Shown: piece by piece, positions 3,399 through 48,688 of the stretch
How positions within the stretch are numbered: position 1 is the stretch's first letter
How the letters are laid out: each line of letters starts with the position of its first letter
Assembly (NCBI RefSeq): GCF_901765095.1
Contig: NC_044037.1
Coordinates: 104,359,279-104,423,278 of the forward strand
Direction of reading: 5' to 3'
DNA from: Microcaecilia unicolor
Lineage: Eukaryota
Length of the DNA: 64,000 bases
Made by a program: the position numbers and the translations under genes
Notes under the pieces: generated by a model
The model's input: the letters and a program-made list of their open reading frames with translations, nothing else
Told to the model about the DNA's origin: nothing
Database searches by the model: none

Positions 3399-3454
3399 CT
3401 ATACCAAGGGGAGAGAAGATCAAACAACACAAGAACATAAGCATTGCCATACTG

Positions 3455-3600
3455 GGTCAGACCAAAGGTCCATTAAGTCCAGTATCTGGTTTCAAACAGT
3501 GGCTAATTTTGGTTATATGTACCTGGCAGGATCCCAAAAAGCACCACGATTCCATAATACCAACCCCCAGGATAAGTAATGGCTTTCCACAAATCTACCT
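3455..3600 (-). mobile_element. CR1-like LINE 3'-end fragment
   Basis: ccatactgggtcagaccaaaggtccattaagtccagtatc resembles the reverse complement of the CR1 3' UTR. Confidence 0.6.
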
Positions 3601-4139
3601 TAATAATTAATAGATTAGTCCAGGAACTTGTTCAAACCTATATGCTAACTGCTTTTACCACATCCTCTGGCATTATATGAAAAAAAATGTTTTCTGACTT
3701 ATTTTAAATTTAGTACTTAGTAACTTCATGGTGTGTCCCCTTGTCTTTCATTTTTTTTGAAAATTCCACTGCTTTCATGATTTTATTGACCCCTCTTGTA
3801 TTTCCTCTCAGTCGTCTCTTCTCAAAGATGAAGCCTTTCCTCATAGGGACGTCATTACATCCCCTTTATCATTTTGATTGCCCTTCTCTGTACCTTTTCT
3901 AATTCTGTTATATCTTTTTGGAGATGCAGTGACCAGAACTGTACACAACACTCAAGATGTGGTCACACCCTGGAGTGATACAGAGGCATTATGATATTTT
4001 ATTTTATGCTCTATTCATTTCTTAGTAATTCCTAATGTTGCTTGCTTTTTTGGCCACCACTGCACACTGAGAAGATTTCAATGTAATGTTCATAATGACA
4101 GCTAATTTCTTTTCTCAGTATTGAGTCCTAATGTGGAAC

Positions 4140-4910
4140 ATGATAACATAAGAACAGCCATACTAGGTCAAACCAATGGTCCATCTAGATAAGTATCCTG
4201 TTTCCAACAGTGACCAATCCAGGTCACAAGTACCTGGCAGAAACCCAAATACTAGCACCATTCAATGATACCAATCCCAGGGTAAGCAGTGGTTTTCCCC
4301 ATGTCTATCTCAATAGCAGACTATGGACTTTTCCTCCAGGAACATGTCTAAACCCAGATACACTAACCGCTATTATCACATTCTCTGGCAACAAGTTTCA
4401 GAAATTAACTATTCATTGACAGAAAAAAATATATTTCCTTCTATTTGTTTTAAAAGTGTTTTCATTTAACTTCATTGAGTGTCCCCTAGTCTTTGTACAT
4501 TTTGAAAGAGCAAAAAAATTGATTCAATTCTACTCATTCTACACCACTCAGGATTTTATTGACCTCAATTGTATCTCCCCTCAGTCATCTTTTTTCCAAG
4601 CTGAACCTAGCATCTTCCATCTATAATTTAGGCCATTCTTTTTTATTTGCATCAGTTTGCCCTTGTGAGATTGGGAATCCAGATGGCAGATGAAATTTCA
4701 TGTGGATGCCATCCTCATACAATTTAACAACTTTGCATAATTGTGTATCATCTGCAAATTTTATCACCACATCATTTATAAGTATATTAAAAAGCACCAA
4801 TCCCAGTACAGATCCCTGGTGTACGCCACTATTCACTATATCCCATGATTCTTTAGTTGCCTTAAGAGGTACTTTGTCAAAAACCTTCTGAAAATCCAGG
4901 TTCACTGAGA
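4140..4910 (-). mobile_element. Diverged CR1-like LINE fragment (RT C-terminus plus 3' end), minus strand
   Basis: 4150-4230 is the reverse complement of the CR1 3' UTR motif (gccatactgggaaagaccaaaggtccatctag...). ORF 4621..4905 carries the FADDT RT motif. Confidence 0.7.
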
Positions 4911-7551: not shown

Positions 7552-8634
7552 ATGGGGGGAAGGCCGACAGTCGCTCAAAAGAGCATGGTTCGGGATAAGG
7601 TATCTTTCAAAGATATCACCATAACAGGGAAGATAGAGTATCCTGATAGTGAGGTTGCAAAAGAGATTGTAGTAGATCGGGTATCTTTAAATAACAATAA
7701 AAATCAGACAAAAGATTGCCAATTAATACTGTCAAGTACTAAGCATGATGTACTTAGGAACAACAAACATAGTTTGAAATGTCTATATGCGAATGCCAGG
7801 AGCCTAAGAAATAAGATGGGGGAGTTGGAATATATTGCACTAAATGAAAAATTAGATATAATAGGCATCTCTGAGACCTGGTGGAAGGAGGATAACCAGT
7901 GGGACACTGTCATACCGGGGTACAAATTATATCGTAGTGATAGGGTGAATCGGATTGGTGGAGGGGTAGCATTGTATATTAACGAGAGCCTTGAATCAAA
8001 TAGATTGAAAATTCTGCAGGAAACAAAACACTCCTTGGAATCACTGTGGATTGAAATTCCATGTGCAAAGGGGAAAAGGATAGTGATAGGAGTGTACTAC
8101 CGTCCGCCTGGCCAGGACGAACAGACGGATGCGGAAATGTTAAAGGAAATCAGGGACGCAAACAAACTGGGCAATACAATAATAATGGGGGATTTCAATT
8201 ACCCGCATATAGACTGGGTTAATGTAACATCTGTACACGCAAGGGACATAAGATTTCTTGATGAAATCAAGGACAGTTTCATGGAACAGCTAGTTCAGGA
8301 GCCGACAAGAGAAGGAAAAATACTAGACTTAGTCCTTAGTGGTGCTCATGATCTAGTGCAGGGGGTAACGATACGAGGGCCGCTTGATAACAGTGATCAT
8401 AATATGATCGGTTTTGATATTGGCATTGAAGGAAGTGAAACTAGGAAATCAAGTACGCTAGCGTTTAACTATAGAAAAGGTGATTACGACAAAATGAGAA
8501 AAATGGTGAAAAAAAGACTGAAAGGAGCAGCTCGCAGAGTAAAAAACTTGCATCAGGCGTGGATGCTGTTTAAAAACACCATCCTGGAGGTTCAGGACAA
8601 ATATATTCCACAGAAAAAAGGGAAAAAAGACTAA
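7552..8634 (+). CDS. LINE ORF2, apurinic-endonuclease-like domain segment, ending at an in-frame stop
   Basis: Carries EN motifs (ISETWW, LYRSDR, GGGVALYI, GDFNYPHIDW, SDHNMI). Confidence 0.8.
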   Translation: MGGRPTVAQKSMVRDKVSFKDITITGKIEYPDSEVAKEIVVDRVSLNNNKNQTKDCQLILSSTKHDVLRNNKHSLKCLYANARSLRNKMGELEYIALNEKLDIIGISETWWKEDNQWDTVIPGYKLYRSDRVNRIGGGVALYINESLESNRLKILQETKHSLESLWIEIPCAKGKRIVIGVYYRPPGQDEQTDAEMLKEIRDANKLGNTIIMGDFNYPHIDWVNVTSVHARDIRFLDEIKDSFMEQLVQEPTREGKILDLVLSGAHDLVQGVTIRGPLDNSDHNMIGFDIGIEGSETRKSSTLAFNYRKGDYDKMRKMVKKRLKGAARRVKNLHQAWMLFKNTILEVQDKYIPQKKGKKD

Positions 8635-8812
8635 ACGTCAGCCGGCGTGGCTAAACAGTAAGATAAAGGAAATCATTAGAGCCAAAAAACAATCCTTCAG
8701 AAAGTGGAGAAGAGAACCAACTGAAAGTAACAGGATAGATCATAAGGAATGCCAAGCCAAATGCAAAGCGGAGATAAGGAGGGCAAAAAAGGACTTTGAG
8801 AAGAAATTAGCG

Positions 8813-10570
8813 TTGGAAGCAAAAATACATAGTAAAAATTTTTTTAGATACATTAAAAGCAGGAAACCGGCCAAAGAGTCGGTTGGGCCGCTGGACGAAA
8901 ATGGTGTTAAAGGGGCGATCAAGGAGGACAAAGCCGTAGCGGAGAAATTAAATGAATTCTTTGCTTCGGTCTTCACCGAGGAGGATTTGGGGGGGACACC
9001 GGTGCCGGAAAGAATATTTGAAGCGGGGGAGTCGGAGAAACTAAACAAATTCTCTGTAACCTTGGAGGATGTAATGGGTCAGTTCAGCAAGCTGAAGAGT
9101 AGTAAATCACCGGGACCTGATGGTATTCATCCCAGAGTATTAATAGAACTAAAAAATGAACTTGCGGAGCTACTGTTAGAAATATGCAATCTGTCCCTAA
9201 AATCGAGTGTAGTACCGGAAGACTGGAGGGTAGCCAATGTTACTCCGATTTTTAAGAAGGGTTCCAGAGGAGATCCGGGAAATTATAGACCGGTGAGTCT
9301 GACGTCGGTGCCGGGCAAGATGGTGGAGGCTATTATTAAGAATAAAATTGCAGAGCATATACAAAAACATGGACTGATGAGACAAAGTCAGCACGGATTT
9401 AGTGAAGGGAAGTCTTGCCTCACCAATCTAATGCATTTTTTTGAGGGGGTAAGCAAACATGTGGACAATGGGGAGCCGGTTGATATTGTATATCTGGATT
9501 TTCAGAAGGCGTTTGACAAAGTGCCGCACGAAAGACTCCTGAAGAAATTGCAGAGTCATGGAATCGGAGGTAGGGTATTATTATGGATTAAGAACTGGTT
9601 GAAAGATAGGAAGCAGAGAGTAGGATTGCGTGGCCAGTATTCTCAGTGGAGGAGGGTAGTTAGTGGGGTCCCGCAGGGGTCTGTGCTGGGTCCGTTGCTT
9701 TTTAATGTATTTATAAATGACCTAGAGATGGGAATAACTAGTGAGGTAATTAAATTCGCCGATGACACAAAATTATTCAGGGTCGTCAAGTCGCAGGAGG
9801 AATGTGAACGATTACAGGAGGACCTTGCGAGACTGGGAGAATGGGCGTGCAAGTGGCAGATGAAGTTCAATGTTGACAAGTGCAAAGTGATGCATGTGGG
9901 TAAGAGGAACCCGAATTATAGCTACGTCTTGCAAGGTTCCGCGTTAGGAGTTACGGATCAAGAAAGGGATCTGGGTGTCGTCGTCGATGATACGCTGAAA
10001 CCTTCTGCTCAGTGTGCTGCTGCGGCTAGGAAAGCGAATAGAATGTTGGGTGTTATTAGGAAGGGTATGGAGTCCAGGTGTGCGGATGTTATAATGCTGT
10101 TGTATCGCTCCATGGTGCGACCGCACCTGGAGTATTGTGTTCAGTACTGGTCTCCGTATCTCAAAAAAGATATAGTAGAATTGGAAAAGGTACAGCGAAG
10201 GGCGACGAAAATGATAGTGGGGATGGGACGACTTTCCTATGAAGAGAGGCTGAGAAGGCTAGGGCTTTTCAGCTTGGAGAAGAGACGGCTGAGGGGAGAT
10301 ATGATAGAAGTGTATAAAATAATGAGTGGAATGGATCGGGTGGATGTGAAGCGACTGTTCACGCTATCCAAAAATACTAGGACTAGAGGGCATGAGTTGA
10401 AGCTACAGTGTGGTAAATTTAAAACGAATCGGAGAAAATTTTTCTTCACCCAACATGTAATTAGACTCTGGAATTCGTTGCCGGAGAACGTGGTACGGGC
10501 GGTTAGCTTGACGGAGTTTAAAAAGGGGTTAGATAGATTCCTAAAGGACAAGTCCATGGACCGCTATTAA
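8813..10570 (+). CDS. LINE ORF2, reverse transcriptase domain plus C-terminal region
   Basis: Carries RT motifs (PGPDGIHPRVL, YRPVSLTSV, FDKVPHERLL, VPQGSVLGPLLF, FADDTKLF) and a CR1-type C-terminus (LEYCVQYWSPY...). Confidence 0.85.
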   Translation: MEAKIHSKNFFRYIKSRKPAKESVGPLDENGVKGAIKEDKAVAEKLNEFFASVFTEEDLGGTPVPERIFEAGESEKLNKFSVTLEDVMGQFSKLKSSKSPGPDGIHPRVLIELKNELAELLLEICNLSLKSSVVPEDWRVANVTPIFKKGSRGDPGNYRPVSLTSVPGKMVEAIIKNKIAEHIQKHGLMRQSQHGFSEGKSCLTNLMHFFEGVSKHVDNGEPVDIVYLDFQKAFDKVPHERLLKKLQSHGIGGRVLLWIKNWLKDRKQRVGLRGQYSQWRRVVSGVPQGSVLGPLLFNVFINDLEMGITSEVIKFADDTKLFRVVKSQEECERLQEDLARLGEWACKWQMKFNVDKCKVMHVGKRNPNYSYVLQGSALGVTDQERDLGVVVDDTLKPSAQCAAAARKANRMLGVIRKGMESRCADVIMLLYRSMVRPHLEYCVQYWSPYLKKDIVELEKVQRRATKMIVGMGRLSYEERLRRLGLFSLEKRRLRGDMIEVYKIMSGMDRVDVKRLFTLSKNTRTRGHELKLQCGKFKTNRRKFFFTQHVIRLWNSLPENVVRAVSLTEFKKGLDRFLKDKSMDRY

Positions 10571-11018
10571 ATGGACTTGGAAAAATTCCGCATTTTTAGG
10601 TATAACTTGTCTGGAATGTTTTTACGTTTGGGGAGCGTGCCAGGTGCCCTTGACCTGGATTGGCCACTGTCGGTGACAGGATGCTGGGCTAGATGGACCT
10701 TTGGTCTTTCCCAGTATGGCACTACTTATGTACTTATGTACTAGTAGTTTGCGGAAGTCGGTTAGTTCGTAGGTCGTTTTCAGGTTGCGTGGTACTGTAT
10801 TCCAGAAGTGTTCTTCTGACATTGAAATCTGTGGCAGAGAATACAGAGGAGCAATTGCCACTGAACCAGGTGCAACAAGCAGTTCCTGCCCAAATTGTGC
10901 ACTACTGATGACTCCTTGCTGGCAGAAGTTATGGTGTTGGAACCATCGGCAGATACTAAGCCTTCACTACATCTAGTGGTATCTATAAAATATAAGTTGA
11001 CAGCCATGTAATAGCATC

Positions 11019-11180: not shown

Positions 11181-13158
11181 ATTCACTGAACGGTAAGGGT
11201 TAGGTGCCGAACCTAGTAGATCACTATTTTATAGATACAGAAACACACTGGATCCAAGGCTGAAGGGCTGTTTAGATCTTAGGGCACAACAGTGCCATAA
11301 ACAGACTACGAATGCTGACAGCAGATCAAGCTATAGTCGAGGTGTAGCCAACTGCCAACAAAATGTCCAAAACAAGAAGAATCAGAGGCAGATTTTTTAT
11401 GGAGACTTATTCAAGAACCAGGAAACAGTTTCAGTGATCGACGAAGTGGATAATACATATCAAGCTCGGACAAGGAATTTTGCTCCTCTCTTGCTACCTA
11501 CTAGTAACAGAAGTCCCATATGTGGCCAAACAGACATGTATTGCCTGTTCCCTGCTTGGAACTCCTGCCACCAGCATAGCAGAACGTTCTTTTTCAGTTG
11601 CAGGACAAGCAATTAACGATTGTAGAATGGAACTGAGCTCTGGCTCTGTACAGTAGATGGTTTATTATTTTTACATATGTTTGAAATGATTGTTTCCTCA
11701 CAGTACATGTTAATAAATAATGTTATTCTTGCATATTTAACAAAGTTGTGTCTATTGTTTTGTGTTAAATTTTTAACAATAGGATGCATTTTATGTTTTG
11801 TTTTAATTTACAAGATCTTTTAAATGCAGATTGGGTAGGGATGAGAAAGAAAACTGCGGGGATGGTGAAGGGACAGTACCAATATGATGGGGATGGTGCA
11901 AGGAAAGAAGAGGATTGACTTGGGATAGTGAGGGGACAAGAGAATTGACTGGGGTCGGTTGGGGATGGGGACCAGATTATGTCCCCATGCACACCTCTAC
12001 TGTATACATCCCTGGTGTCTAGGGGGTATGGGGCAGGAACAATCCCTAGTTGCTCCTGCCGGCACCAGGTTCAAAATGATGCTGGTGACCCCTTGTGGAA
12101 GTGCCTTGGTGCTACCATTGTGGTCAAGCTGCCGTAAAAGGACACAACACAAGACTACCACTAGAGGTTGCCAGTGTCATATTGAACCTGGTTCCGGTAG
12201 GGGCAGAAGCGATTAAGGAATGCTCCTACCCCATAGCCCATAAACCCAAGGGATTTATACAGTTAGGCCCAGGGTGGGAGTCTCTGGAGGCAAGAAAGGC
12301 TGTGGCGAGGATGTGATGGGGGAGCTCTTTGCTGGAGGTTGTGATGTAACAGAGGCTATGGGGGGAGGGGAAGAGGGAATTTTTCCATTAGCACTTGGCC
12401 CCTTCAAGATGTCACCCAGGAGCATGAGGATGAGGATTAGTGGCCCAATGCACACAGGCAGTATGAGTAATGCAAGGTTGATCACAACCATTGTTATTCA
12501 TGTACTGTGGGAGTCACTAACTTTCAGTACTGAGCTGCTGCAGGTTATTGACAGGTGACTTAAGGTGCAGTAACTACCCCCCCCCCCCCCAACCACTTTA
12601 TCTCTTCTATATAGCCTTGTCCTCCCTGAATGCCCCTTTTACTCTTCAATTATCTTGTGGTCCAACTGATTGCTTTAAATTGTATGTGAAAAAGTTATTA
12701 TGAGTTTTTGTATTTACAGTAATGTTTGGGGTTTTGTTTTTGTTTTTTTATCTAGCTTATGCTGTTTCTTGTTTTCTTCATTTGGATCTATTTCCCATTT
12801 TTTTAAAAGATGTTCTTTAGGCTATAATAGCCTCTTTCACCTCAACTTTTATCATACCAGCAGTTATTCCACATTTTTCAATCTTTGGAATAGATCTGAT
12901 CAGAGCTGCCAAGACAGTCCTTTTAAATGTCTATACCTGGCAAGTTTATAAATTAGCACCTAGATCTGGGTGCCAGTTTACACAACTGTCCATCACACTT
13001 TTGCAGCTACTCCTTTTTAGAGCTTTTCTAGCCATTTTGTTCATTTTATCTTATTCTCCCTTTTGAAGGGAAACACTATTACATTTCCTTAATAACTGGA
13101 GAGGGTAGACTAAATTTGATCACGTTACGATCACTATTGCCAAGCTGCCCCAACACTC

Positions 13159-14296: not shown

Positions 14297-14585
14297 CAAA
14301 ACTGCTCCAATTTGTGCTATGTGAATTTTTCACCACATTTTAAGATAAAAATGATCTCAGCCAAACAAATCAACAGTACATACAGTGAATAGTGATAGCT
14401 TTAATCACTGGTCAAACCCCCCCCCCCCCCCCCACACACACAATATATTTCAAAACAACTTATGGTACTTCACAAAAACACAAAATTTGATCAGAAAAGT
14501 GATGCCATGTTTTTTTTTTCCTTCAATAGTTTAAAATCAAATAATTAAAATCACATAACCATCATTGCTTAACAAAAAAAACTTT

Positions 14586-14746
14586 GGGGGTCTTTTACTA
14601 AGCTGCTGTAGTGTTTTTAGCCAGCGGTAGAAATCGGCTAGCGGTAAACGCTGAGACACCCATAGGAATATAATAGACGTCTCGGCTTTTACTGCCAGCT
14701 GATTTCTACCACAAGCTAAAGACACTACCGTGGCTTAGTAAAAGAC
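14586..14746. mobile_element. MITE with 18-bp TIRs GGGGGTCTTTTACTAAGC ... GCTTAGTAAAAGACTCCC
   Basis: The TIRs are read directly from the sequence, and the interior carries a gccagcggtagaaatcggctagcggtaaacgc motif. Confidence 0.6.
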
Positions 14747-16009
14747 TCCCTCAGCTTTGGAAGACTTTTTCAGTCAGGCAGGAACAGAGTGTACAATCCA
14801 ATCCTCAACAGGGGTTCCCTATGTTCACTGCAAAGCTGCCTCAGGGGAATTCACCTTCCTGCACATTGCAAGGTTCATACAGCCACAAATTGGAGCAGTT
14901 TTGAAAGACTGTCTTGGTTGTATACTACCCTAGCTCTAGAGGCCGACCAAAACTGCTTTTTTCAGTTTCATCTAAAACCGAAACTGCAACTGAAACTCAT
15001 TCACCTTGTCATGGCCAAAACCGAAACTGAAAACACAAATTTGGTTATGTAAAAACAGTGAGGGCTGCTGGGGATTAGCCTGCAGTCTGACTGCATCCCT
15101 CTGATAAACCCACAGTATCCAAACCAGAATATAGTATAAAATAATGAAAGACTGAGTTTTACCTACAAGAAAAATAGCTTCCACACACATGGATGCAGCT
15201 AATGAAAACTAAAAGCCACATTGCTTTTACATTGGCTGACTTTGCGCCACACTTGGAGTAACAGCTGATATCATAACGCCACAGAGATGCTAATTTCTAA
15301 GGAGATTATTAACCCAAATTTACAGACTTAAATTCCTGCTAAACTTTTGTATCAAAAGCATTTATTTGGCACACTCTATTTACTATACAAACTACTGTGC
15401 AAGATTATAGCTGTATTACTTCCGATTGCAGGACAAAAAAAAAAACAAAAAACAGAATACAGTTCGTGTGTTGGGGGGGGGGGGGGGGGGGGGACATGAA
15501 TAGGGGCAGCTCCTATTTGGCAGAGGAAGGAGGGAGACAACGGGATAAAACAAATTTTTGGCTTTCACCGAAAGTACATGGGTCATTTTTGGGTTAAACC
15601 AAAAACAACTTGGCCAACTGAAACCGGGCAGAAAAGAGATTTTGGGCCAGTTTCGGCACTGTAACCAAAATAGAAATTCAGTTGACCTACCTATTGTTTA
15701 AGAGGTAATTCAAATCACCTATTGTTATTGTTTTAACAGTAATTAGGCAAGATAACTAATTTGGTAGCATTTCATTACCTGTCTGTTCATTTTGGTCAGG
15801 TGTACAACACCACCACTAGTCTCTTCCCCTTCACACACGAAAGTTCTATCCATTAATACTCCACAGTTCAGTTTGCTTTTGTAGAGATTTTATTCCCTGT
15901 TTAAAATACATGCTCTTTAACATAAGGTAGACCAATTTGGTGGAGTGGGGGGCACTATCCTCACTGAAGACATAAAGCACTTTTTGCCCCACAGCTCCCC
16001 TTTGCTTAC

Positions 16010-16135: not shown

Positions 16136-16486
16136 CTGCAGAAGAACACAACAGTGGTTAAAGTCCTCTGCATACTCATTCCTGCTAAACCAAACAGACC
16201 CCGCCCCTCTTAATGCATTTTAAGTTGCTAAAAAAAAAGATCAGATTGAAAACCGAGTCTGTGGAGCTCAATATGCGTCAATGCTAGAATCTGTTCAGAT
16301 AAGACAGGGTAGGAAGAAAGGGAGAGGTGTTGGTATTATATGTTAAAGATAATATTAAAGCCACATAACTGCAGGAACTATAGGGTAAGGAAGAGGCACT
16401 ATGGGTCAATCTGGAAAGAGGAAATGGAAAATGTATTTACACTGGTGTGATATACAGGCCTCCTTCACAAACAGAAGAAAGGTAAA

Positions 16487-16645
16487 ATTATGTATCATAC
16501 CTGATAATTTTCTTTCCATTAATCATAGCTGATCAATCCATAGACTGGTGGGTTGTGTCCATCTACCAGCAGGTGGAGATAGAGAGCAAACTTTTGCCTC
16601 CCTATATGTGGTCATGTGCTGCCGGAAACTCCTCAGTATGTCAAT
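16487..16645. repeat. DIRS-like element terminal inverted repeat (3' ITR of the minus-strand element)
   Basis: It is the reverse complement of 21903-22066. Confidence 0.8.
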
Positions 16646-17139
16646 ATCAAAGCTCCATCCGCAGGACTCAGCACTTAGAGAATTACACCCACGAAGGGAC
16701 ACTCTGCCCAGCTCACCACCGCCGAAACGGGGGAGGGGAATTAACCCAGCTCATCCCCACACAAGTGGGGGAGGGGAATCTGTCCAGCTCATCCCCGCGG
16801 AGCGGGGGAGGGACACCACACCCGCCGATGCGGGGGGATCTGGCTTATCCTGCAACCGCAACCGCGGGAGGAGCTGACTGACCCTAACACCGCCGAAGCG
16901 GGAGGGGTACAAAGCTGCCCTACAGCCGCACGAAGCGGGAGGGAGTGCCGGCAGAATTTAAATCTCAATCCGGCCCCGTAAAACGGAGGGGAGAGGAATG
17001 CAGCAGCTCACTGTAACACAAACTCGTCTCAACTCTTGAAGAATCCAAGTGAAAGAAGAACTTGAACACGAAGTCCTCCTGAAGTAACTGAAGGCTAAAC
17101 TTGAACCTAAAATTCAACCAGAATATAAACAGTACAGAT

Positions 17140-17250
17140 ATCTGGGAGGGGCTATGGATTGATCAGCTATGATTAATGGAAAGAAAATTATCAGGTATGA
17201 TACATAATTTTACCTTCCATATCATCAAGCTGATCAATCCATAGACTGGT
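17140..17250. repeat. DIRS internal complementary region (ICR)
   Basis: 17140-17206 is the reverse complement of 16487-16553, and 17207-17250 is the reverse complement of about 22020-22063. Confidence 0.7.
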
Positions 17251-17504
17251 GGGATGTACCGAAGCAGTACTCACCCAGGGCGGGACATAGAAATCCCTGA
17301 CCGCAACACTGAAGCTCCAAACCGGGCCTCCGCCCGAGCAGCCACAGTCAAGCGGTAATGCCTGGCAAAGGTATGGGCCTTCCCTGCGGCCACCTAAGCC
17401 GCTGCAATGGCTTCCTTGCCCATCTTGCCACTGTAGGCTTAGAATCCTGCAGACCCTTACGAGGACCTGTAAACAGGACAAACAGATGATCCGATTTCCG
17501 GAAA

Positions 17505-19868
17505 TCATTGGTCACTTCCAAGTATCTGATGATGACTCGTCTCACATCCAGAAATTGAGAGCAGAGTATTCCTCTGGGTAGACCTCCCTACGAAAGGAAG
17601 GGAGACTGCTTTCAACGTCAGGTCTTTCAGAGATGCCCTCGACAAGGGTTCAAAAGGCGGCTTCTGCAATGCTCTTAGCACCAGGTTGAGATTCCACGCA
17701 GGCACCACTGAGTGCAGAGGAGGGCGCAGGTGATTAACTCCCTTGAGAAAGCGCACCACATCTGGCTGCGAAGCCAGGGAAGCACCCTTCAGGCGGCCCC
17801 TGAAGCAAGCCAGAGCCGCTACCTGAACTTTCAGGGAACTGAGCGACAGGCCTTTGTCCAGACCTTCTTGCAGGAACGCCAACACTGAAGAAATTGGAGC
17901 AGTGAAGGGAGAAAGTGAGCCTGCTTCACACCACGCTGCAAAGATACGCCAAAGCCTGGCGTAAGCCGTAGAAGTAGAGCGCTTCCTCGCTCTCAGCATA
18001 GTGGCGATGACCTTGTCTGAGAAGCCCTTCTTTCTCAGACGCTGCCGCTCAATAGCCAGGCCGGAAGACCAAAGGGGGAGGGATCCTCCATCACCACAGG
18101 ACCCTGATGTAACAGGCTCCACTGGCAGCCGCAGAGGATCGCCGACTGAGAGCCTGATCAAGTCCGCATACCAGGGACGTCTGGGCCAATCCGGACCCAC
18201 CAGGATTACCCTGCCGGGATGCTTTGCCACCCGGTCTAGCACCCTGCCCAACATGGGCCAGGGCGGGAACACATAGAGAAGCTCTTGTGTCGGCCACCGT
18301 TGGAGAAGAGCATCTACTCCCAGGGATCGAGGGTCCCGTCCTCTGCTGAAAAAGCGCGGCACTTGGCAATTGGCCGATGACGCCATAAGATCTAGGCTCG
18401 GCTGGCCCCAGCGCTTCGTGATGCCCAAGAACGCCTGAGCAGATAGCTGCCACTCTCCGGGCTCCAAGGTATGGCGACTGAGAAAGTCCGCCTTGACATT
18501 CATGACTCCGGCAATGTGGGCCGCTGACAGCTGTTCCAGGTTCGCTTCCGCCCACCAGCATAGATTCATGGCCTCCTTGGCTAGAGGGGCGCTCTTGGTA
18601 CCTCCCTGGCGGTTGACATAGGCCACAGCCGTGGCATTGTCTGACAGGACCCGTACAGGCTTCAACACCAGTACCGGGATGAACTCCAACAACACCAACC
18701 GAATGGCTCTGAGTTCCAGGAGGTTGATAGACCACTTGCCTCTGCAGGAGACCAGAGCCCCTGCGCTGTCCTTCCCAAGCAGTGAGCTCCCCAGCCCATC
18801 AAAGAGGCGTCTGTCGTGACGACAATCCACTCCGGGGTCACCAGAGGCATTCCTGCAGACAACTTGTCTGTCTGCGTCCACCAGCTCAGCGCCTTGCGCA
18901 CTGCTGGGTCCAAGGGAAGGCGCACAGCATAATCCTCCGACATCGGAGTCCAGCGCAGCAGCAGAGATTGTTGTAGTGGTCTCATATGAGCCCTGGCCCA
19001 GGGCACTACTTCCATCGTGGCCGTCATAGAGCCCAACAGCTGCACGTAGTCCCAAGCCCGAATAGGAGAGGCTACTAGGAACTAGTCCACCTGAGCCTGA
19101 AACTTGACAATCCGATTGTCTGGCAGGAACACTCTGCCCACTTGGGTGTCGAATCGAACTCCCAGATACTCCAGGGACTGAGTCGGGCGCAGCTGGCTTT
19201 ACTCCCAGTTGATGATCCACCCCAGGGAGCTCAAAAGAGCAACCACCCGGTTCACAGCTTTGCCGCACTCTGCATAAGAGGGGGCTTGGATCAACCAGTC
19301 GTCCAGATAAGGATGGACTTGAACTCCTTCCTTCCTCAGGAAGGCCGCGAAGACCACCATTACTTTGGAGAAGGTCCGCGGAGCAGTAGCCAACCCGAAC
19401 GGGAGGGCTCTGAACTGGAAGTGTCGGCCCATTACTGCAAAACGCAGAAAGCGTTGATGAGGAGGCCAGATGGGAATATGCAAGTACGCTTCCTTGATGT
19501 CCAAGGATGCCAGGAACTCTCCTGCCTTCACTGCCACTATAACAGAGCGGAGGGTCTCCATGCGAAAGTGCCGAACTTTCAAGGCCCAATTGACCCCTTT
19601 GAGGTCGAGGATAGGCCGTACAGAACCTCCTTTCTTTGGTATCACAAAGAAAAAGGAGTAACATCCCTTGCCAAGCTGATTTTCTGGCACCGGAACGACC
19701 GTCCCCAGGCGGATCAGATTGTTCAAGGTCTGCTGCACTACCACAGCTTTGACCGGAGACTTGCAGGGAGAGAGTACAAACCCGTCTTTTAAGGGTCGGC
19801 AGAACTCTAGCTTGTAGCCGTCTCTGATGACTTCCAGCGCCCAAGCGTCTGAAGTTATTGTGGTCCAC
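17505..19868 (-). CDS. DIRS-like RNase H, DIRS-specific conserved region and YR N-terminal domain. Real coding starts near 19200 after a -1/+1 frame change from the RT ORF; 19200-19868 of this ORF is out-of-frame overlap
   Basis: Shows LLELRAIRLVL...NVKADFLSR (RNase H), LLYVFPPW...RVILVGPDWPRRPWYADL, and GFSDKVIATMLRARKRSTSTAYARLWRIFAAWCE...VPAWNLNLVLRAL (YR core-binding domain). The ORF stops before the catalytic RHRY region, and only ~270 nt remain before the ICR. Confidence 0.75.
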   Translation of the reverse strand: MDHNNFRRLGAGSHQRRLQARVLPTLKRRVCTLSLQVSGQSCGSAADLEQSDPPGDGRSGARKSAWQGMLLLFLCDTKERRFCTAYPRPQRGQLGLESSALSHGDPPLCYSGSEGRRVPGILGHQGSVLAYSHLASSSTLSAFCSNGPTLPVQSPPVRVGYCSADLLQSNGGLRGLPEEGRSSSPSLSGRLVDPSPLLCRVRQSCEPGGCSFELPGVDHQLGVKPAAPDSVPGVSGSSIRHPSGQSVPARQSDCQVSGSGGLVPSSLSYSGLGLRAAVGLYDGHDGSSALGQGSYETTTTISAAALDSDVGGLCCAPSLGPSSAQGAELVDADRQVVCRNASGDPGVDCRHDRRLFDGLGSSLLGKDSAGALVSCRGKWSINLLELRAIRLVLLEFIPVLVLKPVRVLSDNATAVAYVNRQGGTKSAPLAKEAMNLCWWAEANLEQLSAAHIAGVMNVKADFLSRHTLEPGEWQLSAQAFLGITKRWGQPSLDLMASSANCQVPRFFSRGRDPRSLGVDALLQRWPTQELLYVFPPWPMLGRVLDRVAKHPGRVILVGPDWPRRPWYADLIRLSVGDPLRLPVEPVTSGSCGDGGSLPLWSSGLAIERQRLRKKGFSDKVIATMLRARKRSTSTAYARLWRIFAAWCEAGSLSPFTAPISSVLAFLQEGLDKGLSLSSLKVQVAALACFRGRLKGASLASQPDVVRFLKGVNHLRPPLHSVVPAWNLNLVLRALQKPPFEPLSRASLKDLTLKAVSLPFVGRSTQRNTLLSISGCETSHHQILGSDQ

Positions 19869-19969
19869 TCGCCCATAAACGAGGACAGCCGTCCTCCAAT
19901 CTGCACTGGGGCGTGGACCAAGGCCCCGTCATTGGGTACAAGACCCTGGGGGAGGACCGGAGGGAGCAC
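19199..19969 (-). CDS. DIRS-like reverse transcriptase domain
   Basis: Carries RT motifs (FFFVIPKKGGSVRPILDLKGVN, FLASLDIKEAYLHIPI, FRALPFGLATAPRTFSKVM, YLDDWLI). Confidence 0.85.
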   Translation of the reverse strand: MLPPVLPQGLVPNDGALVHAPVQIGGRLSSFMGEWTTITSDAWALEVIRDGYKLEFCRPLKDGFVLSPCKSPVKAVVVQQTLNNLIRLGTVVPVPENQLGKGCYSFFFVIPKKGGSVRPILDLKGVNWALKVRHFRMETLRSVIVAVKAGEFLASLDIKEAYLHIPIWPPHQRFLRFAVMGRHFQFRALPFGLATAPRTFSKVMVVFAAFLRKEGVQVHPYLDDWLIQAPSYAECGKAVNRVVALLSSLGWIINWE

Positions 19970-21596
19970 CTCCGGGACGGCGGTCTCTGCGAAAGGAATA
20001 CTGCTTGGGGCAGAAGTTCCTCTTGAAGGAAGAGGGGGCAGAGGAGCCCGACCTGCCCGGGCGGTACCGACGGGCTTCCTGAAACCGTCCTCTGGAGGTA
20101 CCAGGGCGAGTACTAGCCCGAGCCCTGACCTCTGGTAACTTCTTGCCCTTAGACGTGCCGAGATCGGTCACGATTTTGTCCAGCTCGACCCCAAAGAGCA
20201 GCTTGCCTTTAAAAGGCAATCTAGCCAGGCGGGATTTAGAGGCGTGGTCAGCAGACCAATGTTTCAGCCAAAGCCACTGCCGCGCAGAGATTGTCTGAGC
20301 CATGCCTTTCGCTGAGGCCCTCAAGACATCATACAGCAAGTCTGCCAAATAGGCTAAGCCCGATTCCAGGGCCGGCCAATCAGCCCTCAAGGAAAGATCC
20401 GAGGGGAAAGCCCGCTGCACCATAGTCAGGCACGCCCTGGCCACATAGGAGCCGCAAATTGAGGCCTGCAAACTTAAAGCAGCTGCCTCAAAGGACGACC
20501 TTAAGGCCGCCTCCAATCTTCTGTCTTGGGCGTCCTTTAGGGCCGTGCCACCTTCCACCGGCAACACCGTTTTCTTAGTCACCGCAGTGATTAAAGAATC
20601 CACGGTAGGCCACAGATAGGCCTCACGTTCACTTTCAGTCAAAGGATAGAGGCGGGACATAGCCCTAGCCACTTCAAGGCTCGCTTCCGGGACATCCCAT
20701 TGAGCCGCAATTAAGGTGTGCATGGCATCATGCACGTGGAAGTTTCTAGGCGGGCGCTTCGTCCCCAGCATAATGGCAGAGCCAACAGGGGCTGAGGGAG
20801 AGACGTCCTCCGGAGAGGAAATCTTCAAAGTGTCCATGGCCTGTACCAACAGGTTGGACAAATCCTCTGAGCTAAAAAGCCGCGCTGCAGAGGGGTCATC
20901 CGCTCCATCCGAGCGGGGATCCGTCTCCTCCAAGGAATCCGCAAAGGACCGTTGGGAGACCTCAGATACGCTGCCCTCATCTACATCAGAGGAGACAAAG
21001 TCCTCCAAGGCCTGGGAATCAACCCGAGGGCGTTTACCTCTGGGAACCTCAACCTCTTTACCAGACGAGGGAGCAGGGGCAGCGTTTTGCATAAGGAAGG
21101 CCTGATGCAGCAGCAAAACAAACTCGGGGGAGAAACCCCCCAGACTGTGTACTTCCGCAGCCTGGGCAACAGCCCTAGACGCACCCTCAACCAGCGCTCG
21201 CAAGAGCGGGGGAGAGACATGCTGCGCATCCAAAATGGCGTCCGGCGCGACACTCCGCGAAGGAGCCGCGCGGGAAGAACGGCGCTTAACTTTAGCCGCT
21301 TTTGTGCCGTCGCCCAAATTAAGGGCGTTCATGGCATTAATGTCTCCAACCTCAAGGGCGGCCCAAGAAGAAGCCGTCCGAGCCGCGTGGCCGGCCAAGA
21401 TGGCGGAGGCGAGGAGCGGGGGATGGGCGTTTATGGCGGGAAAAACCACCACGCCGGAGGAAGGACCGGGACATTCATCGGTCACGAAACTGTCACCCAA
21501 CAAGGGCGAATCAGGCTTTAAGACCCCCGCATCCCCTCTAGAAGCGCTCAAGCGATCCGGGTAGCGACTCTTTGCGCCCTCGCCCTCCGACGCCAT
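19929..21596 (-). CDS. DIRS-like ORF1 (gag-like), 555 aa, intact
   Basis: It is the first ORF of the element, and a paralogous fragment lies at 1109-1327. Confidence 0.6.
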   Translation of the reverse strand: MASEGEGAKSRYPDRLSASRGDAGVLKPDSPLLGDSFVTDECPGPSSGVVVFPAINAHPPLLASAILAGHAARTASSWAALEVGDINAMNALNLGDGTKAAKVKRRSSRAAPSRSVAPDAILDAQHVSPPLLRALVEGASRAVAQAAEVHSLGGFSPEFVLLLHQAFLMQNAAPAPSSGKEVEVPRGKRPRVDSQALEDFVSSDVDEGSVSEVSQRSFADSLEETDPRSDGADDPSAARLFSSEDLSNLLVQAMDTLKISSPEDVSPSAPVGSAIMLGTKRPPRNFHVHDAMHTLIAAQWDVPEASLEVARAMSRLYPLTESEREAYLWPTVDSLITAVTKKTVLPVEGGTALKDAQDRRLEAALRSSFEAAALSLQASICGSYVARACLTMVQRAFPSDLSLRADWPALESGLAYLADLLYDVLRASAKGMAQTISARQWLWLKHWSADHASKSRLARLPFKGKLLFGVELDKIVTDLGTSKGKKLPEVRARASTRPGTSRGRFQEARRYRPGRSGSSAPSSFKRNFCPKQYSFRRDRRPGGAPSGPPPGSCTQ

Positions 21597-21902
21597 ATGC
21601 CACGAGGAGAAGAATCGGGGAACCCCCTGCCCGCTATAAAAAGGTAAAAATTACCTGCTTGCCGCTCCGAGCTGTAACGACCTGGTGTCCCAGTGAGTAG
21701 CTGCAATAAACGTTTAAATAAACGTCAAAATAAACGCCTTTAAGGACGTTCAAAATTTTTTTTTTTTTAACGGAGCCAGCGGGAGGGGGGAGAAAAGGAG
21801 GGACCTGGCACCACCAGGTTTGCACTTGCTCAAAAGAGCCCTCAACCCCAGGCACTCAACAAAACCTAAGAATTAGGCTTGGAGGCGTAGCCAGAGCTGC
21901 TG

Positions 21903-22066
21903 CTGTGTGTGACCACCACCTGCTGAGATAGAGAACATACTGGGGAGTTTCCGGCAGCACATGACCACATATAGGGAGGCAAAAGTTTGCTCTCTATCTC
22001 CACCTGCTGGTAGATGGACACAACCCACCAGTCTATGGATTGATCAGCTTGATGATATGGAATGGA
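21903..22066. repeat. DIRS-like element terminal inverted repeat (5' ITR)
   Basis: It is the reverse complement of 16487-16645. A solo homolog lies at 2560-2700. Confidence 0.8.
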
Positions 22067-26481: not shown

Positions 26482-28832
26482 TTGCATTGCCTCCAATCAG
26501 GGCCGTGCCAATGCGGTAAGTGGGGTAAGCAAGGCAGGGGGGCGCCTGCCTTTGAGGGGCGCCGCTGCCCTGCCATCCCTGCCTTCCACTCGCTTGCAAA
26601 ATCTTTTACCTGAAGTTGTGATTCTCCTACCTCCCCTGCCCTCCTTTTCATGGCAAACTGGAAGTGAAAGCAACGCAACGCAACGCAGCAGTATTCACTG
26701 AGGCAGGCAGGCTCTTCAAGTTATTTGAGAGAATGCAACCAGATTGCTATATATGTCTTTGGTTTGGGGATAACTCCTCACTCAGGGTGAACTTCAGAGC
26801 TTGAACAGCATTCATATTAAAGAGACTGGGAGAATGGGCGTGCAAGTGGCAGATGAAGTTCAATGTTGACAAGTGCAAAGTGATGCATGTGGGTAAGAGG
26901 AACCCGAATTATAGCTAGGTCTTGCAAGGTTCCGCGTTAGGAGTTACGGATCAAGAAAGGGATCTGGGTGTCGTCGTCGATGATACGCTGAAACCTTCTG
27001 CTCAGTGTGCTGCTGCGGCTAGGAAAGCGAATAGAATGTTGGGTGTTATTAAGAAGGGTATGGAGTCCAGGTGTGCGGATGTTATAATGCCGTTGTATCG
27101 CTCCATGGTGCGACCGCACCTGGAGTATTGTGTTCAGTACTGGTCTCCGTATCTCAAAAAAGATATAGTAGAATTGGAAAAGGTACAGCGAAGGGCGACG
27201 AAAATGATAGTGGGGATGGGACGACTTTCCTATGAAGAGAGGCTGAGAAGGCTAGGGCTTTTCAGCTTGGAGAAGAGACGGCTGAGGGGAGATATGATAG
27301 AAGTGTATAAAATAATGAGTGGAATGGATCGGGTGGATGTGAAGCGACTGTTCACGCTATCCAAAAATACTAGGACTAGAGGGCATGAGTTGAAGCTACA
27401 GTGTGGTAAATTTAAAACGAATCGGAGAAAATTTTTCTTCACCCAACGTGTAATTAGACTCTGGAATTCATTGCCGGAGAACGTGGTACGGGCGGTTAGC
27501 TTGACGGAGTTTAAAAAGGGGTTAGATAGATTCCTAAAGGACAAGTCCATAGACCGCTATTAAATGGACTGGAAAAATTCCTCATTTTTAGGTATAACTT
27601 GACTGGAATGTTTTTACGTTTGGGGAGCGTGCCAGGTGCCCTTGACCTGGATTGGCCACTGTCGGTGACAGGATGCTGGGCTAGATGGACCTTTGGTCTT
27701 TCCCAGTATGGCACTACTTATGTACTTATGTACTTATGTAAATTTTAAAAGTGCTAAAAATACGTTTTTTAAGTATTTGCATTAAATCTAATTGCAGAAT
27801 TCAGGTGCTGGGAGTCTGTACTTGGTTGTCATATGCTCAGATTTGTTTAAATCATATGCAAATTACTCTGTTTTTGGGAGGTTCACATTTGCATATTTAT
27901 GGATCAAAAATGATGGGAATGTTTACAGCCTTAATGTTAGGTCATGGCTCTGATCAAAAGTGTGAAGTTTGATCCAAAAACGAAGGGTTTATCTAGTGTT
28001 TTTCACTAAGAATTCCCATGAGTGTCTGTATGTTAATCTGCATTCAAATAGAGCTCTCTGATTGGATGATCAGCTTCTGTTAGAAATCTGCCGGGAATGG
28101 AACAGAGTGAGACAGCAACTGATCGTCGGTTTGGTCAAGAGAGACATGCAGCTGTGAGTTCCTGTTTGTGTTGACTGAAATTATAAGAGTGCCTGATTAT
28201 GTGGTAAATGAGAAAATATGAGTGAAAAGAGGTTGGTGGAGTTTGAGGTTTCGCTAGTGAGAAAAGGATCTGAATATTTCAGGATTACTTGAAGTTTATG
28301 AAGAATAGAAAAGGGTGAATTTCAGTTTAAGAGTGTTTAAATCCTATAAGCTATATAAAGGCTAGGTAGATTTAAGTGACTGTAAGCAAGGAAACCTTAA
28401 TATTTGATCTGAAATAAATATTTGATCTGAGATAGTTGATCAGAGATAAATGTTTGATCTGAATTATATCCTTTGGTGCAAAGGAGATTAGAAAAAGAAT
28501 CTTTGGAAACTAAGAGGATTTTGCCCACATTTTGAATTAGCATTCCTATTTTGAGTTGGAAATCTTTGGAAACTAAGAGGACTTTGCCCACATTTTGAAT
28601 TAGCATTCCTATTTTGAGTTGGAAATCTTTGAAGTGTTATGAAAATACATTTTGCTTTAATGACATTGCTAAACTTTAGAGTCAGAGACTTATCAATGAG
28701 GGATACCTACAGTGCTATTTTTTCCTGAGGTCTGGCTTACTTGCCTGCTCCCTTCTGTTCCTGCTCTGCTAGGCGGAGAGGGGGCGCCAACTGATAGTCT
28801 GCAGGGGGGCACCAGAGACCCTAGGCACGGCC
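26482..28832. mobile_element. Non-autonomous DNA-transposon-like element with CAGGGCCGTGCC termini, carrying a nested CR1 fragment and internal 62-bp tandem repeats
   Basis: The 5' end is cagggccgtgccaatgcggtaagtggggtaagca and the 3' end ...ggcacggccctg is its inverted complement. The internal CR1 copy is at 26820-27735. Tandem repeats lie at 28395-28625. Confidence 0.55.
26820..27735 (+). mobile_element. 5'-truncated copy of the same CR1-like LINE (RT C-terminus plus 3' UTR and (tacttatg)n tail)
   Basis: Near-identical to 9830-10740. ORF 26922..27563 repeats the C-terminal RT sequence. Confidence 0.85.
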
Positions 28833-35639: not shown

Positions 35640-37110
35640 ATTTCAAAGACAGAAATTGAATAATGAGGCACAGCTACCTTCATACGTTTTGGATGTTACT
35701 GAATTCTATTATTCTGTCACACTGTATTTCCAGTTTTGGCACAGTGTAAGTCATCACAAGGACAAAATGTAAGAAAACCAATGGACTGCATTAGGGGCTT
35801 ACAGCCCATTTAATTATGTTTAAACAAATGAGAGATCTGCATGAAAGAAAATATCTATTTTTATTATTTTGACTTATGAAACCACTCGTCTCTGAAACAT
35901 GCTCAAAACACAATAATCCGTTTGTACAAAAGAGATAAGGTGAAGATGTGATTCTATGTGCTCCAATGAAAGGAGAGTTTAATTTTACTTCCAATCGTTA
36001 TAACACCAGGATGCTCATTTTCGAAACAGATGGACGTCCAAAAAGTGACATAAATCGGCACTTAGACGTCCATCTCTCAGAGACGTCCAAATCAGTATAA
36101 TCGAAACCTGATTTTGGACGTCTTTATCAGAAGTCCGTCAAAATCTCAAGGGGGTGTATCAGAGGCGTGGTGAAGGCGGGACTTGGGCGTTCCTAAGACT
36201 TGGATGTCTTTGAGCCATAATGGAAAAACGCAGAGATGTCCAAGAGTTGGACATTTTTACCCTGACCTGTTTTTATTACGAATAAGGCACAAAAAGGTGC
36301 CCAAAATGACCACTGGAGGGAATCAGGGATAACCTCCCCTTACTCCCCCAGTGGTCATTAACCCCCTCCCACTCTTAAAAAACATCATTAAAAATATTAC
36401 TTGCCAGTCTCAGATGTCATACTCAGGTCCATGACAGCGCACACAGGTCCCTGGAGTAGTTTCGTAGTAGGTACAGTGCATGTCAGACAGTTGGACCCAG
36501 GCCCATCCCCCCTTACCTGTTACATTTGTGGAGGAAACAGCGAGCCCTCCAAACCCCACCAGAAACCCTCTGTACCCACACACAGGTGCCCCCCTTCACC
36601 CGTAAGGGCTATGATAGTGGTGTACAGTTGGAGGTAGTAGGTTTTGGGGGGCTCAGCACACAAGGTAAGGGAGCTGTGTACCTGGGAGCATTTTATGAAG
36701 TCCACTGCAGTGCCCCCCTGGGTGCCCGACTGCTGTCCTGGCATGTCAGGGGGACCAGTGTACTACAAATACTGGCTCCTCCCATGTACAAATGGCTTGA
36801 ATTTGGACGTTTTAGACTTGGACGTCTTTGGTTCCGAAAATCGCCGAAAATCAAAAATGTCCAAATCCAAGGACGTCCATGGTATTTTCAAAATGAAAGA
36901 TGGACGTCCATCTTTTTTCGAAAATGACCTTCTCCCCACTTCCGAATTTGGAGGCTTCCCAAAGTAGATTAAAACAACAGTTAAGATGAGCCCATCAGTA
37001 AACAGGATATCCTCACTGAAATTTGGCCATGTATTACTGTATTGTATAGAACAGTGTAGAAAAATGAGCACAAAAAAACAGCCTTTATTAGTGCTGTTTA
37101 CTTAAGAATA
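35640..37110 (-). repeat. Family X copy split by the nested DNA-transposon insertion (35640-36011 + 36967-37110)
   Basis: See 22490-22960. Continuity resumes exactly after the inserted element. Confidence 0.7.
36012..36966. mobile_element. Non-autonomous DNA transposon (~950 bp) with ~26-bp TIRs (ctcattttcgaaacagatggacgtcc / ggacgtccatcttttttcgaaaatgac) and many subterminal GGACGTC repeats, inserted inside another repeat
   Basis: The TIRs are visible. The host repeat (family X, 35640-37110) reads continuously across the insertion when compared with its paralog at 22490-22960. Confidence 0.7.
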
Positions 37111-37129
37111 TAAGAGTAGCCATACTGGG

Positions 37130-38390
37130 TCAGACAAATGGTCCATCTAGCCCAGTATCCTGTTTTCCAAACAGCAGCCAAGCCAAGTCACAAGTACCTG
37201 GCAGAAGCCCAATTAGTAGCAACATTCCATGCTACCAATCCTGGGGCAAGCAGCTGCTTCCCCATGTCTGTCTCAATAGCAGACTATGGATTTTTCCTCC
37301 AGGAATTTCTCCAAACCTTTTTTAAACCCAGATACACTAACCACTGTTACTACATCCTCCGGCAAAGAGTTCCAGAGCTTTTCTATTCGTTGAGTGAAAA
37401 AATATTTCCACCTATTTTTTTTTTTAAGTATTTCCATGTAACTTCCTCGAGCGTCCCCTAGTCTTTGTAATTTGGGAACGAGTAAAAAAAATCGATTTAC
37501 TTCTACTTGTTCTACACCACTCAGGATTTTGTAGACCTCAATCATATCTCCCCTCATCTGTCTCTTTTCCAAGCTGAAGAGCCCTAACTTCTTTAGCCTT
37601 TCCTCAAACAAGAGGAGTTCTATCCCCTTTATCATTTTGGTCGCTCTTCTTTGAATCTTTTCTAATTCCACTATTTCTTTTTTGAGATACGGCGACCAAA
37701 ACTGAAAATACTCAAGCTGCGGTCAAACCATGGAGCGATACAAAGGCATCATAGTATTTTGTCTTATTCACCATCCCTTTCCTAATAATTCTTAGCATCC
37801 TGATAGCTTTTTTGGCCACTGCCGCACACTGAGCAGAAGACTTCAGCGTATTATCTACAATGACATCTAGATCTTTTTCTTGAGTGCTGACCCCCAAAGT
37901 GAACCCTAGCATCAGGTAACTATGATTCAGATTATTCTTTCCAATGTGCATCACTTTGCATTTGTACACATTAAATTTCATCCGCTATTTGGATGCCCCA
38001 TCTTTCAATTTCCTAAGGTCTTCCTGCAATATTTCACAGTCTGCTCGTGTTTTAACAACCTTGAATACTTTTGTATCATCTGCAAATTTAATCACTTCAC
38101 TCGTCATTCCGATTTCCATGTCATTTATAAATATGTTAAATAGCACCGGTCCCAATATAGATCCCTGCGGCACTTCATTGTTCACCCTCCTCCATTGAGG
38201 GAAATTACAATTTAGTCCTACCCTCTGTTTTCTGTCCAATAACCAATTCCTAACCCACACCAGAACCTTGCCTCCTATCCCATGACTCTTTAATTTTCTT
38301 AGGAGTCTCTCATGAAGAACTTTATCAAAAGCTTTCTGAAAATCTAAATACATCAACCGGCTCACCTTTATCCACAATTCCACCAGCTAC
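37130..38390 (-). mobile_element. Diverged CR1-like LINE fragment (RT plus 3' UTR)
   Basis: ORFs 37273..37671, 37712..37981 and 37985..38383 carry RT motifs (FADDTKVF, VPQGSILGPVLF) and a CR1-type C-terminus. 37130-37210 matches the reverse complement of the CR1 3' UTR. Confidence 0.75.
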
Positions 38391-48480: not shown

Positions 48481-48490
48481 CCTCTTAAAA

Positions 48491-48688
48491 CTAATTTTAC
48501 CTGACTGAACGAAAGCAGCAGAGTAAAGCCGGCTCCGTCTTCACCTTTCTTCTTCCCTCTCAGCTGTGGTCCCGCCCTCATTTCCTGTTTATGCAAGGGC
48601 AGGAGCACAGCTGAGAGGGAAAGAGAAAGGTGAAGACGGAGCCTGTACTCTACTTCTTTCACTGCCATTCAGTCATGTAAAATTAGTT
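48491..48688. repeat. Palindromic hairpin core of the same MITE family (~85-bp arms), abutting the satellite array
   Basis: ctaattttacctgactgaacgaaagcagcagagtaaagccggctccgtcttcacc... pairs with ...ggtgaagacggagcctgtactctacttctttcactgccattcagtcatgtaaaattag. Confidence 0.6.

Follow-up and report, generated by a model that had tools for sequence, protein, structure and literature searches.

A coding-defective DIRS1-like retrotransposon with preserved termini in Microcaecilia unicolor

In the DIRS1-like retrotransposons described from vertebrates (XtDIRS1-3 of Xenopus tropicalis and AcDIRS1/2 of Anolis), gag is followed by a frame for reverse transcriptase (RT), RNase H and a methyltransferase (MT), and then by a tyrosine recombinase (YR) (PMC3266345). 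The Ngaro, PAT and VIPER elements also encode an RT-RNase H and a tyrosine recombinase, but carry split direct repeats in place of inverted terminal repeats (ITRs) and an internal complementary region (ICR), and Ngaro and VIPER are without the MT domain (PMC3266345). In Dictyostelium DIRS-1, the ICR is essential for retrotransposition and the cDNA is mostly linear and single-stranded, and action in trans was shown for RT as well as for the remaining proteins (Malicki et al. 2020, PMC7192593). Here we describe an element of this kind in a 64,000-nucleotide stretch of Microcaecilia unicolor (contig NC_044037.1, positions 104,359,279 to 104,423,278), hereafter the window, whose own numbering is used throughout. 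Very probably, the minus-strand sequence 22062..16479 is one copy of a tyrosine-recombinase retrotransposon of the DIRS1-like group (order DIRS). It lies within an intron of the host's major vault protein (MVP) gene and has the same orientation as that gene.

The element is 5,584 bp long, its ends lying a few nucleotides away from the bounds of 16487-22066 first proposed. In sense order it reads ITR, gag, RT, RNase H, Dam-like MT, YR, ICR, spacer and ITR with a right extension (Table 1), the same order of genes as in its vertebrate relatives. The inverted and direct repeats of the window were located by repeat analysis and self-BLAST, and both bear out the ITR/ICR architecture noted by the first-pass annotation. 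The two ITR cores (16527-16641 and 21935-22049) form an inverted pair of 115 nt with a single mismatch (99%). The termini as a whole align over 128/129 nt, with 96.9% identity in a 129-nt self-BLAST alignment, and not over the 158 bp initially reported; with its extension, the 3' terminus reaches 163 nt. This 34-nt extension is complementary to the right ICR only.

The ICR joins a complement of the 3' end to one of the 5' end. Its left part (43 nt) is 98% complementary to 22020-22062, the 5' tip, and its right part (65 nt) is 100% complementary to 16543-16479, the 3' end, so that the proposed complementarity to both tips is real. No target-site duplication was found: the flanks read ...TGTCCA|TT... 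and ...ACC TT|TCTTCT, with only TT in common, and if joined would give ...AATCTGTCCA-TT-TCTTCTGTTTG....

Table 1. Features of the DIRS1-like element and of its surroundings, in window positions
Feature	Position	Strand	Description
Left (5') ITR	21935..22062	minus	13-nt divergent tip 22062-22050 and 115-nt conserved core 22049-21935; starts TTCCATATC...
5' untranslated leader	21597..21934	minus	A-run and 12-nt tandem (21736-21705)
ORF1 (gag)	19929..21596	minus	555 aa, fully open
RT fingers/palm	19199..19969	minus	+1 frame relative to gag, 41-nt gag overlap; YLDD 19309-19298; ends at premature TAA 19201-19199
RT thumb/connection and RNase H start	18737..19198	minus	RT frame; TTDAS 18817-18803; broken by TAG 19084-19082
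Alternative-frame ORF	18745..19928	minus	-1 relative to pol, in gag frame; opens directly after gag stop, spans whole RT
RNase H frameshift site	18732..18745	minus	1-nt frameshift, GCAGAGGCAAGTGG; intact relatives uninterrupted here
RNase H C-terminal part and Dam-like MT	18126..18731	minus	LELRAI, SDNATAV, VKADFLSR; DLMASSAN...YVFPPWP...WPRRPWYADL
MT/YR junction	18111..18140	minus	frames fused by a net -1 change (4 nt fewer than Rhinatrema L001); by-eye DNA comparison
YR N-terminal (core-binding/SAM-like) domain	17605..18062	minus	ERQRLRKKGF...LKDLTLKAV
Deletion 1 junction	17604..17605	minus	163 nt (~55 aa) absent relative to Rhinatrema and Xenopus; frame shifted; junction AAAGCAGT|CTCCCTTCC
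Surviving YR catalytic middle	17420..17597	minus	SLPSF...LDVRRVIIRYLEVTNDFRKSDHLFVLFTGPRKGLQDSKPTVARW; two other frames, frameshift near 17563-17551
YR C-terminal remnant	17271..17419	minus	frameshift ~17420-17414; HTFARHYR...SRPG*; stop TGA 17273-17271
Deletion 2 junction	~17385-17376	minus	~37 aa absent; sequence ...GCAGGGAAGGCCCATACC...
ICR	17152..17257	minus	left ICR 17257-17215 and right ICR 17216-17152; 2-nt overlap (AA) = circular junction
ICR-to-right-ITR spacer	16642..17151	minus	510 nt, holds mini-hairpin motif array
Right (3') terminus	16479..16641	minus	ITR 16641-16513 and 34-nt extension 16512-16479 (163 nt); ends ...TTTTACCTT
MVP exons	41951-41832, 41327-41142, 34413-34291, 26343-26203, 23908-23771, 23720-23502, 16144-16019, 3398-3231	minus	tblastn
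Second DIRS1-like 5' remnant	955-1522 and about 2637-2696	minus	gag 1522-955 with stop and frameshift; ITR core

The element is assigned to the DIRS1-like group because all the architectural features are present and because its RT, RNase H, MT and YR are closest to those of elements that themselves bear ITRs and an ICR. Its RT is 46-51% identical over more than 340 aa to those of two such elements, in pairwise comparisons rather than in an RT tree: one from X. laevis (L003, 4651-10355) and one from the caecilian Rhinatrema bivittatum, the closest relative found (L001, 4180-9974, GCA_901001135.2). The best protein matches are DIRS pol and YR sequences of amphibians, reptiles and fish, headed by R. 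bivittatum at 51-60% identity; no protein in the databases proved near-identical. The element is an ordinary coding-defective copy of a known kind, for which the family call was correct, and it is a new member, since over a long stretch the database proteins are at most 60% identical to it.

Other classes were considered and rejected. For Ngaro, PAT or VIPER, the long repeats of the window are all inverted, split direct repeats (A1-B1 ... B2-A2) were not found among them, and an MT region is present. For a long terminal repeat (LTR) retrotransposon, whether Ty3/gypsy or endogenous retrovirus, direct terminal repeats were not found and no ORF (open reading frame) of the window matched an integrase core. 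A Penelope classification was rejected as well. The first description, of a near-intact DIRS-like element, is thus right about the family but not about the state of the copy, which has lesions in RT, in RNase H and at the MT/YR junction and in which gag alone is open.

The gag frame has the 555 codons originally described. It matches the Pfam family LAP2alpha (E=4.5e-15), its C-terminal two thirds corresponding to the conserved DIRS gag/LAP2alpha-type domain, and all 548 relatives retrieved at E<=1e-3 by an exhaustive HMMER search align to residues ~210-550. It is 31% identical to the gag of the X. laevis element, which also matches LAP2alpha; the LAP2alpha domain itself derives from DIRS1 gag/ORF1 (PMC4495291). 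Neither a word-indexed homology search with this gag nor an exact look-up of the protein in public assemblies gave a match.

The RT and RNase H had also been read as open, which they are not. The RT part (Pfam RVT_1, E=2.3e-16) carries two in-frame stops, and the TDAS and LELRAI (18719-18702) motifs of RNase H lie in different frames. The intact X. laevis pol aligns with the window in one frame for aa 33-376 and in another for aa 336-583, which places a 1-nt frameshift at ~18745-18735. Downstream, the RNase H-MT part is 43-56% identical to the X. laevis and Rhinatrema pol. The Pfam Dam match is sub-threshold both here (E=0.018) and in the X. laevis element (E=0.0034); homologues of this part carry PF17917 and PF05869, the latter in several of them. 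The rest of RNase H, the MT and the YR N-terminal domain share one frame in the window, whereas in the Rhinatrema and X. laevis elements pol stops after the MT and YR is a separate, overlapping ORF.

A further frame, -1 relative to pol, is open across this region for 392/406 codons in the window and for 570/608 in X. laevis, and 0/5000 codon-order shuffles reach either figure. It is seen across RT, RNase H and MT in both relatives (L003 7084-8910, L001 6533-9425), and in intact relatives it continues into the recombinase. This frame looks like the 'long ORF overlap' of Piednoel et al. 2011 (PMC3266345). As a consequence, the first ~375 aa of the 787-aa 'YR ORF' of the first-pass annotation are neither RT nor RNase H.

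We aligned the frame-corrected translation of the recombinase with four intact DIRS recombinases, and tblastn and DNA alignment gave concordant results. The N-terminal domain, the catalytic middle and the C-terminal tyrosine motif all align with DIRS recombinases, but the pieces lie in three reading frames, and ~274 nt of recombinase sequence have been lost. With the intact Rhinatrema YR as a query, tblastn recovered residues 345-388 in another frame at 17551-17420 (79.5% identity) and residues 441-473 at 17375-17277. Deletion 1 removes the box-I arginine (...SARRVSEL...) and the lysine (...FLPK...). Deletion 2 removes the His-x-x-Arg motif (...AHSTR...); its placement at the nucleotide level is ambiguous, since VAAGKAH may come from ...YVAKGK... 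or from ...AATWKSLH..., so that the conserved tryptophan of ATW is either deleted or substituted. A TAG (17396-17394) stands in place of a tyrosine codon, and the codon of the catalytic tyrosine is retained (17357-17355, in HTFARHYR). Of the catalytic set R...K...H-x-x-R...W/H...Y, Arg-I, Lys and HxxR are therefore lost and only the Tyr is kept, and this recombinase is catalytically dead. Deletion 1 may have a 4-nt microhomology (CAGT), seen only through the Rhinatrema sequence as a proxy; we do not claim it.

The profile of the YR alignment found nothing at E<=0.01 among PDB sequences, and Pfam Phage_integrase is sub-threshold even on the intact Rhinatrema YR. The recombinase assignment is hence based on the conserved motifs, on the literature and on the precomputed PF00589 of homologues (P0030 and P0048). 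The long ORF does end soon after ...LTLKAVSL, at 17505, as first observed. The RHRY catalytic region had been taken as deleted: the loss of function holds, but it came about through two internal deletions and frameshifts instead of a clean truncation. Catalytic sequence in other frames of 17230-17505 had been named as a finding that would speak against that deletion; part of it is present, with the catalytic middle and the tyrosine motif lying within 17230-17551.

Were these lesions already present in the RNA template, or did they arise in place? The termini and the ICR differ at 2 of 223 compared positions. From this, ~19 post-insertion substitutions (95% range 2-70) are expected in the 4.3-kb coding part, which holds at least 9 disabling lesions. 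None falls in the 1,665 nt of gag (P=0.013 under uniform placement), while the 324-nt YR catalytic remnant has five, namely both long deletions (>100 nt), two frameshifts and one stop (P=2e-4 under uniformity). This clustering mildly favours an already defective template. The reading that we prefer, with about even confidence, is that the recombinase deletions, at least, were in the RNA template and that the copy comes from a non-autonomous lineage mobilised in trans.

Several points weigh against this preference. A single copy is at hand, and a second one with the same deletion junctions was not seen. No stretch of the element is better conserved relative to Rhinatrema than the surviving YR fragment, and this argues against a long neutral drift in a recombinase-less lineage. 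The wide interval on divergence leaves room for decay in place, and the two ITR cores were not necessarily identical at insertion. The P values treat the nine lesions as independent, and one complex event may have produced several of them. Finally, faulty assembly of a repeat could account for the frameshifts of one nucleotide.

The alternative is that an autonomous DIRS1-like element inserted intact and acquired all its lesions later, by neutral decay or local rearrangement, without ever being mobilised as it now stands. We regard this as a serious possibility, though a little short of even. Such decay is the default fate of copies of transposable elements (TEs), and amphibians commonly carry old and degenerate DIRS copies (PMC9210276). 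The lesions are not confined to YR but also affect RT, RNase H and MT/YR; what is left of the YR still closely resembles intact relatives, so that the damage would be recent; and the upper bound on divergence permits dozens of mutations. The nearly untouched termini and ICR fit this history less well, as does the packing of five lesions into the recombinase remnant against none in the much longer gag.

It is unlikely that part of the apparent damage is an assembly or sequencing artefact. On that reading, the single-base frameshifts (18745, ~18125, ~17555 and ~17417) would stem from errors in the consensus of a highly repeated family, and the actual copy would be less defective. The RNase H frameshift does lie in a short A-containing run (GCAAG against an expected GCAAAG), and isolated frameshifts also occur in the Rhinatrema reference copy, within its gag and between its RT and RNase H. 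However, consensus errors would leave unexplained the two RT stops, the TAG of the YR and the two long deletions, and the recombinase would still be without Arg-I, Lys and His-x-x-Arg.

A further reading would place the copy in a non-autonomous DIRS1-like subfamily of its own, with gag, termini and ICR kept, two fixed YR deletions, an expanded array of ~40-nt mini-hairpins, and RT and recombinase supplied in trans. We consider this doubtful on present evidence. If true, the subfamily would be a natural counterpart of the Dictyostelium helper/donor experiment. Should other genomic copies share both YR deletions, natural trans-mobilisation of a recombinase-less DIRS would be documented, which is so far the case for engineered Dictyostelium constructs only.

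The array in question occupies 16999-16700 of the spacer between the ICR and the right ITR, a region in which ~5 copies of a ~45-bp tandem motif had been reported. The repeated motif is real, but its copy number and period differ: we count ~9 loosely spaced units of CCCTCCC-GC-TTCG-GCGG, with a period of 34-48 nt. Each unit could form a small hairpin, and one of them carries a compensatory double change from G-C to A-T. Tandem Repeats Finder did not call the array, and the region does not fold better than shuffled sequences (z=-1.72); on account of this z-score we do not claim a structured RNA element. The spacer is longer than those of Rhinatrema L001 (272 nt) and X. laevis L003 (101 nt), of which the former has no CCCTCCC hairpin motif and the latter no array.

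How an element of this kind would move can be proposed from its family membership. A replication mechanism for DIRS-1 was reportedly proposed by Cappello et al. (1985), and it has been tested in Dictyostelium (PMC7192593). By analogy, the element would be transcribed from the left ITR and its RNA reverse-transcribed into a mostly linear single-stranded cDNA; the ICR would then act as a template or splint restoring both termini and joining them as a circle. The tyrosine recombinase would recombine the short junction (TT within CTT here) with an identical target sequence, leaving no target-site duplication. The window copy has an open gag and essentially perfect cis parts, termini and ICR, but the RT stops, the RNase H frameshift and the YR losses make it unable to produce its own RT or recombinase. 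The copy is thus either inert or movable only with enzymes from intact relatives. To call it trans-dependent, as the first-pass annotation did, is reasonable only as a description of what its movement would need.

Comparison of the three elements at hand bears on this model. In the window (17152-17216), in Rhinatrema L001 (9477-9541) and in X. laevis L003 (10019-10083), the right ICR measures exactly 65 nt and is 100% complementary to the element's own terminus, although its sequence differs from one element to the next. Termini and ICR therefore covary across three species, as an ICR-templated repair of the ends predicts, and the comparison supports such a model.

The host gene was delineated by tblastn with an approximate human MVP sequence as the query, which gave collinear minus-strand exons from 41951 to 3231; one of them was independently confirmed as a vault repeat (PF01505/PF17796). 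The window holds the 5' half of MVP. The element lies between exons 23720-23502 and 16144-16019, 335 nt upstream of the latter. This position raises the question of whether the open gag has been, or is being, co-opted by the host as an alternative MVP exon, in the way LAP2alpha arose from DIRS1 gag, which would explain why gag alone is intact. The sense orientation and the proximity of the next exon are compatible with the idea, gag carries a LAP2alpha-type domain, and TMPO and ZNF451 provide a precedent (PMC4495291). We nevertheless hold such co-option to be highly improbable from these sequence features: the near-perfect ITR/ICR complementarity indicates a recent insertion, in which an open gag requires no selection, and gag starts 466 nt inside the element (22062 to 21596), behind a leader.

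A second DIRS fragment, older and also in sense orientation, is found in the following MVP intron. Its gag is only 45% identical to that of the main copy at the amino acid level, against 91.5% identity over 59 nt of the ITR core; the ITR core is thus far better conserved than gag. This fragment belongs to a different, older DIRS lineage. Earlier taken, with bounds of 890-2700, as a sign that the family is multi-copy, it shows only that DIRS elements recur at this locus.

The window is rich in TEs, among which are a CR1-like long interspersed nuclear element (LINE), a pogo-like DDE_1 fragment and minisatellites. The LINE (7552-10570, plus strand) has ORFs for an Exo_endo_phos endonuclease and an RVT_1 RT; a second LINE 3' fragment (26922-27563, plus strand) has a 213-aa ORF with few residues different from the first copy, and the near-identity of these ORFs suggests a recently active family. 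A tail-like repeat of ~90 nt occurs at 3428-3525, 4139-4236, 10651-10738, 27643-27730, 37103-37200 and 60593-60681; its counterpart in Rhinatrema L001, at 14533-14628, matches at 79-84%. The pogo/Tigger-like DDE_1 transposase fragment lies at 48916-49746 (minus strand), and two minisatellite-like arrays (47400-48500 and 53750-55200) contain long Pro/Ser-rich pseudo-ORFs on both strands. ORFs at 58686-59114 (plus strand, 142 aa) and 61015-62202 (minus strand, 395 aa) have no Pfam match; by eye, the former resembles a GIY-YIG (Penelope-type) endonuclease. For annotation, which is where its main value lies, the DIRS1-like copy is a typical insertion in a TE-rich vertebrate intron, to be masked accordingly.

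How does the element compare with its nearest relatives? At the DNA level, comparing the window by BLAST with 55 kb from Rhinatrema and Xenopus loci gave matches at 65-84% only, and the Rhinatrema element is just 65-77% identical to ours, in patches; the ITR core had 0 matches in JGI metagenome contigs. At the amino acid level, the Rhinatrema element is 51% identical to ours in RT, 56% in RNase H-MT, 52% in the YR N-terminal domain and 79.5% in the YR middle. It is 5,795 bp long, with an ITR core of 123 nt and an ICR of 44+65 nt, and its left ICR has the motif ACATCCCA.CAGTCT..GGA.TGATC in common with the window. Unlike our copy, it has a complete 630-aa YR ORF with ARR, LPK, AHSLR, ATW and RHY. 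Around this full-length copy, the same locus contains several further DIRS terminus/ICR fragments (2297-2409, 2676-2806, 11999-12096 and 15045-15081), and DIRS elements are clustered or nested there. The X. laevis element (5,705 bp, ITR core 128 nt, ICR 40+65 nt) encodes gag (488 aa), pol (608 aa) and YR (731 aa) in three open ORFs, with a complete recombinase; apart from gag, it is 46-47% identical to the window in RT and in the YR N-terminal domain.

More broadly, the dimensions tabulated for the ITR, ICR and extension of XtDIRS3, AcDIRS1 and AcDIRS2 (PMC3266345) are nearly equal to those of the window. Vertebrate DIRS1-like elements, that of X. laevis included, have ITR cores of ~115-140 nt, a divergent tip of 11-26 nt and a right extension of 26-34 nt. 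As in the window, two abutting ICRs of ~40 and ~60-65 nt lie just downstream of the YR stop, and the two also share a T-rich terminal di- or trinucleotide, the lack of a target-site duplication and an open -1 frame across pol. Our copy departs from these relatives by the stops and frameshifts of pol, the fused MT/YR, the two YR deletions and a junction overlap of 2 nt (TT) instead of TTT. Dictyostelium DIRS-1, the founding member, belongs to a very distant host and has 330-bp ITRs and different sequences, a comparison made from its description and not by alignment; yet it follows the same cis logic, with ITRs and an ICR that contains the circle junction (PMC7192593).

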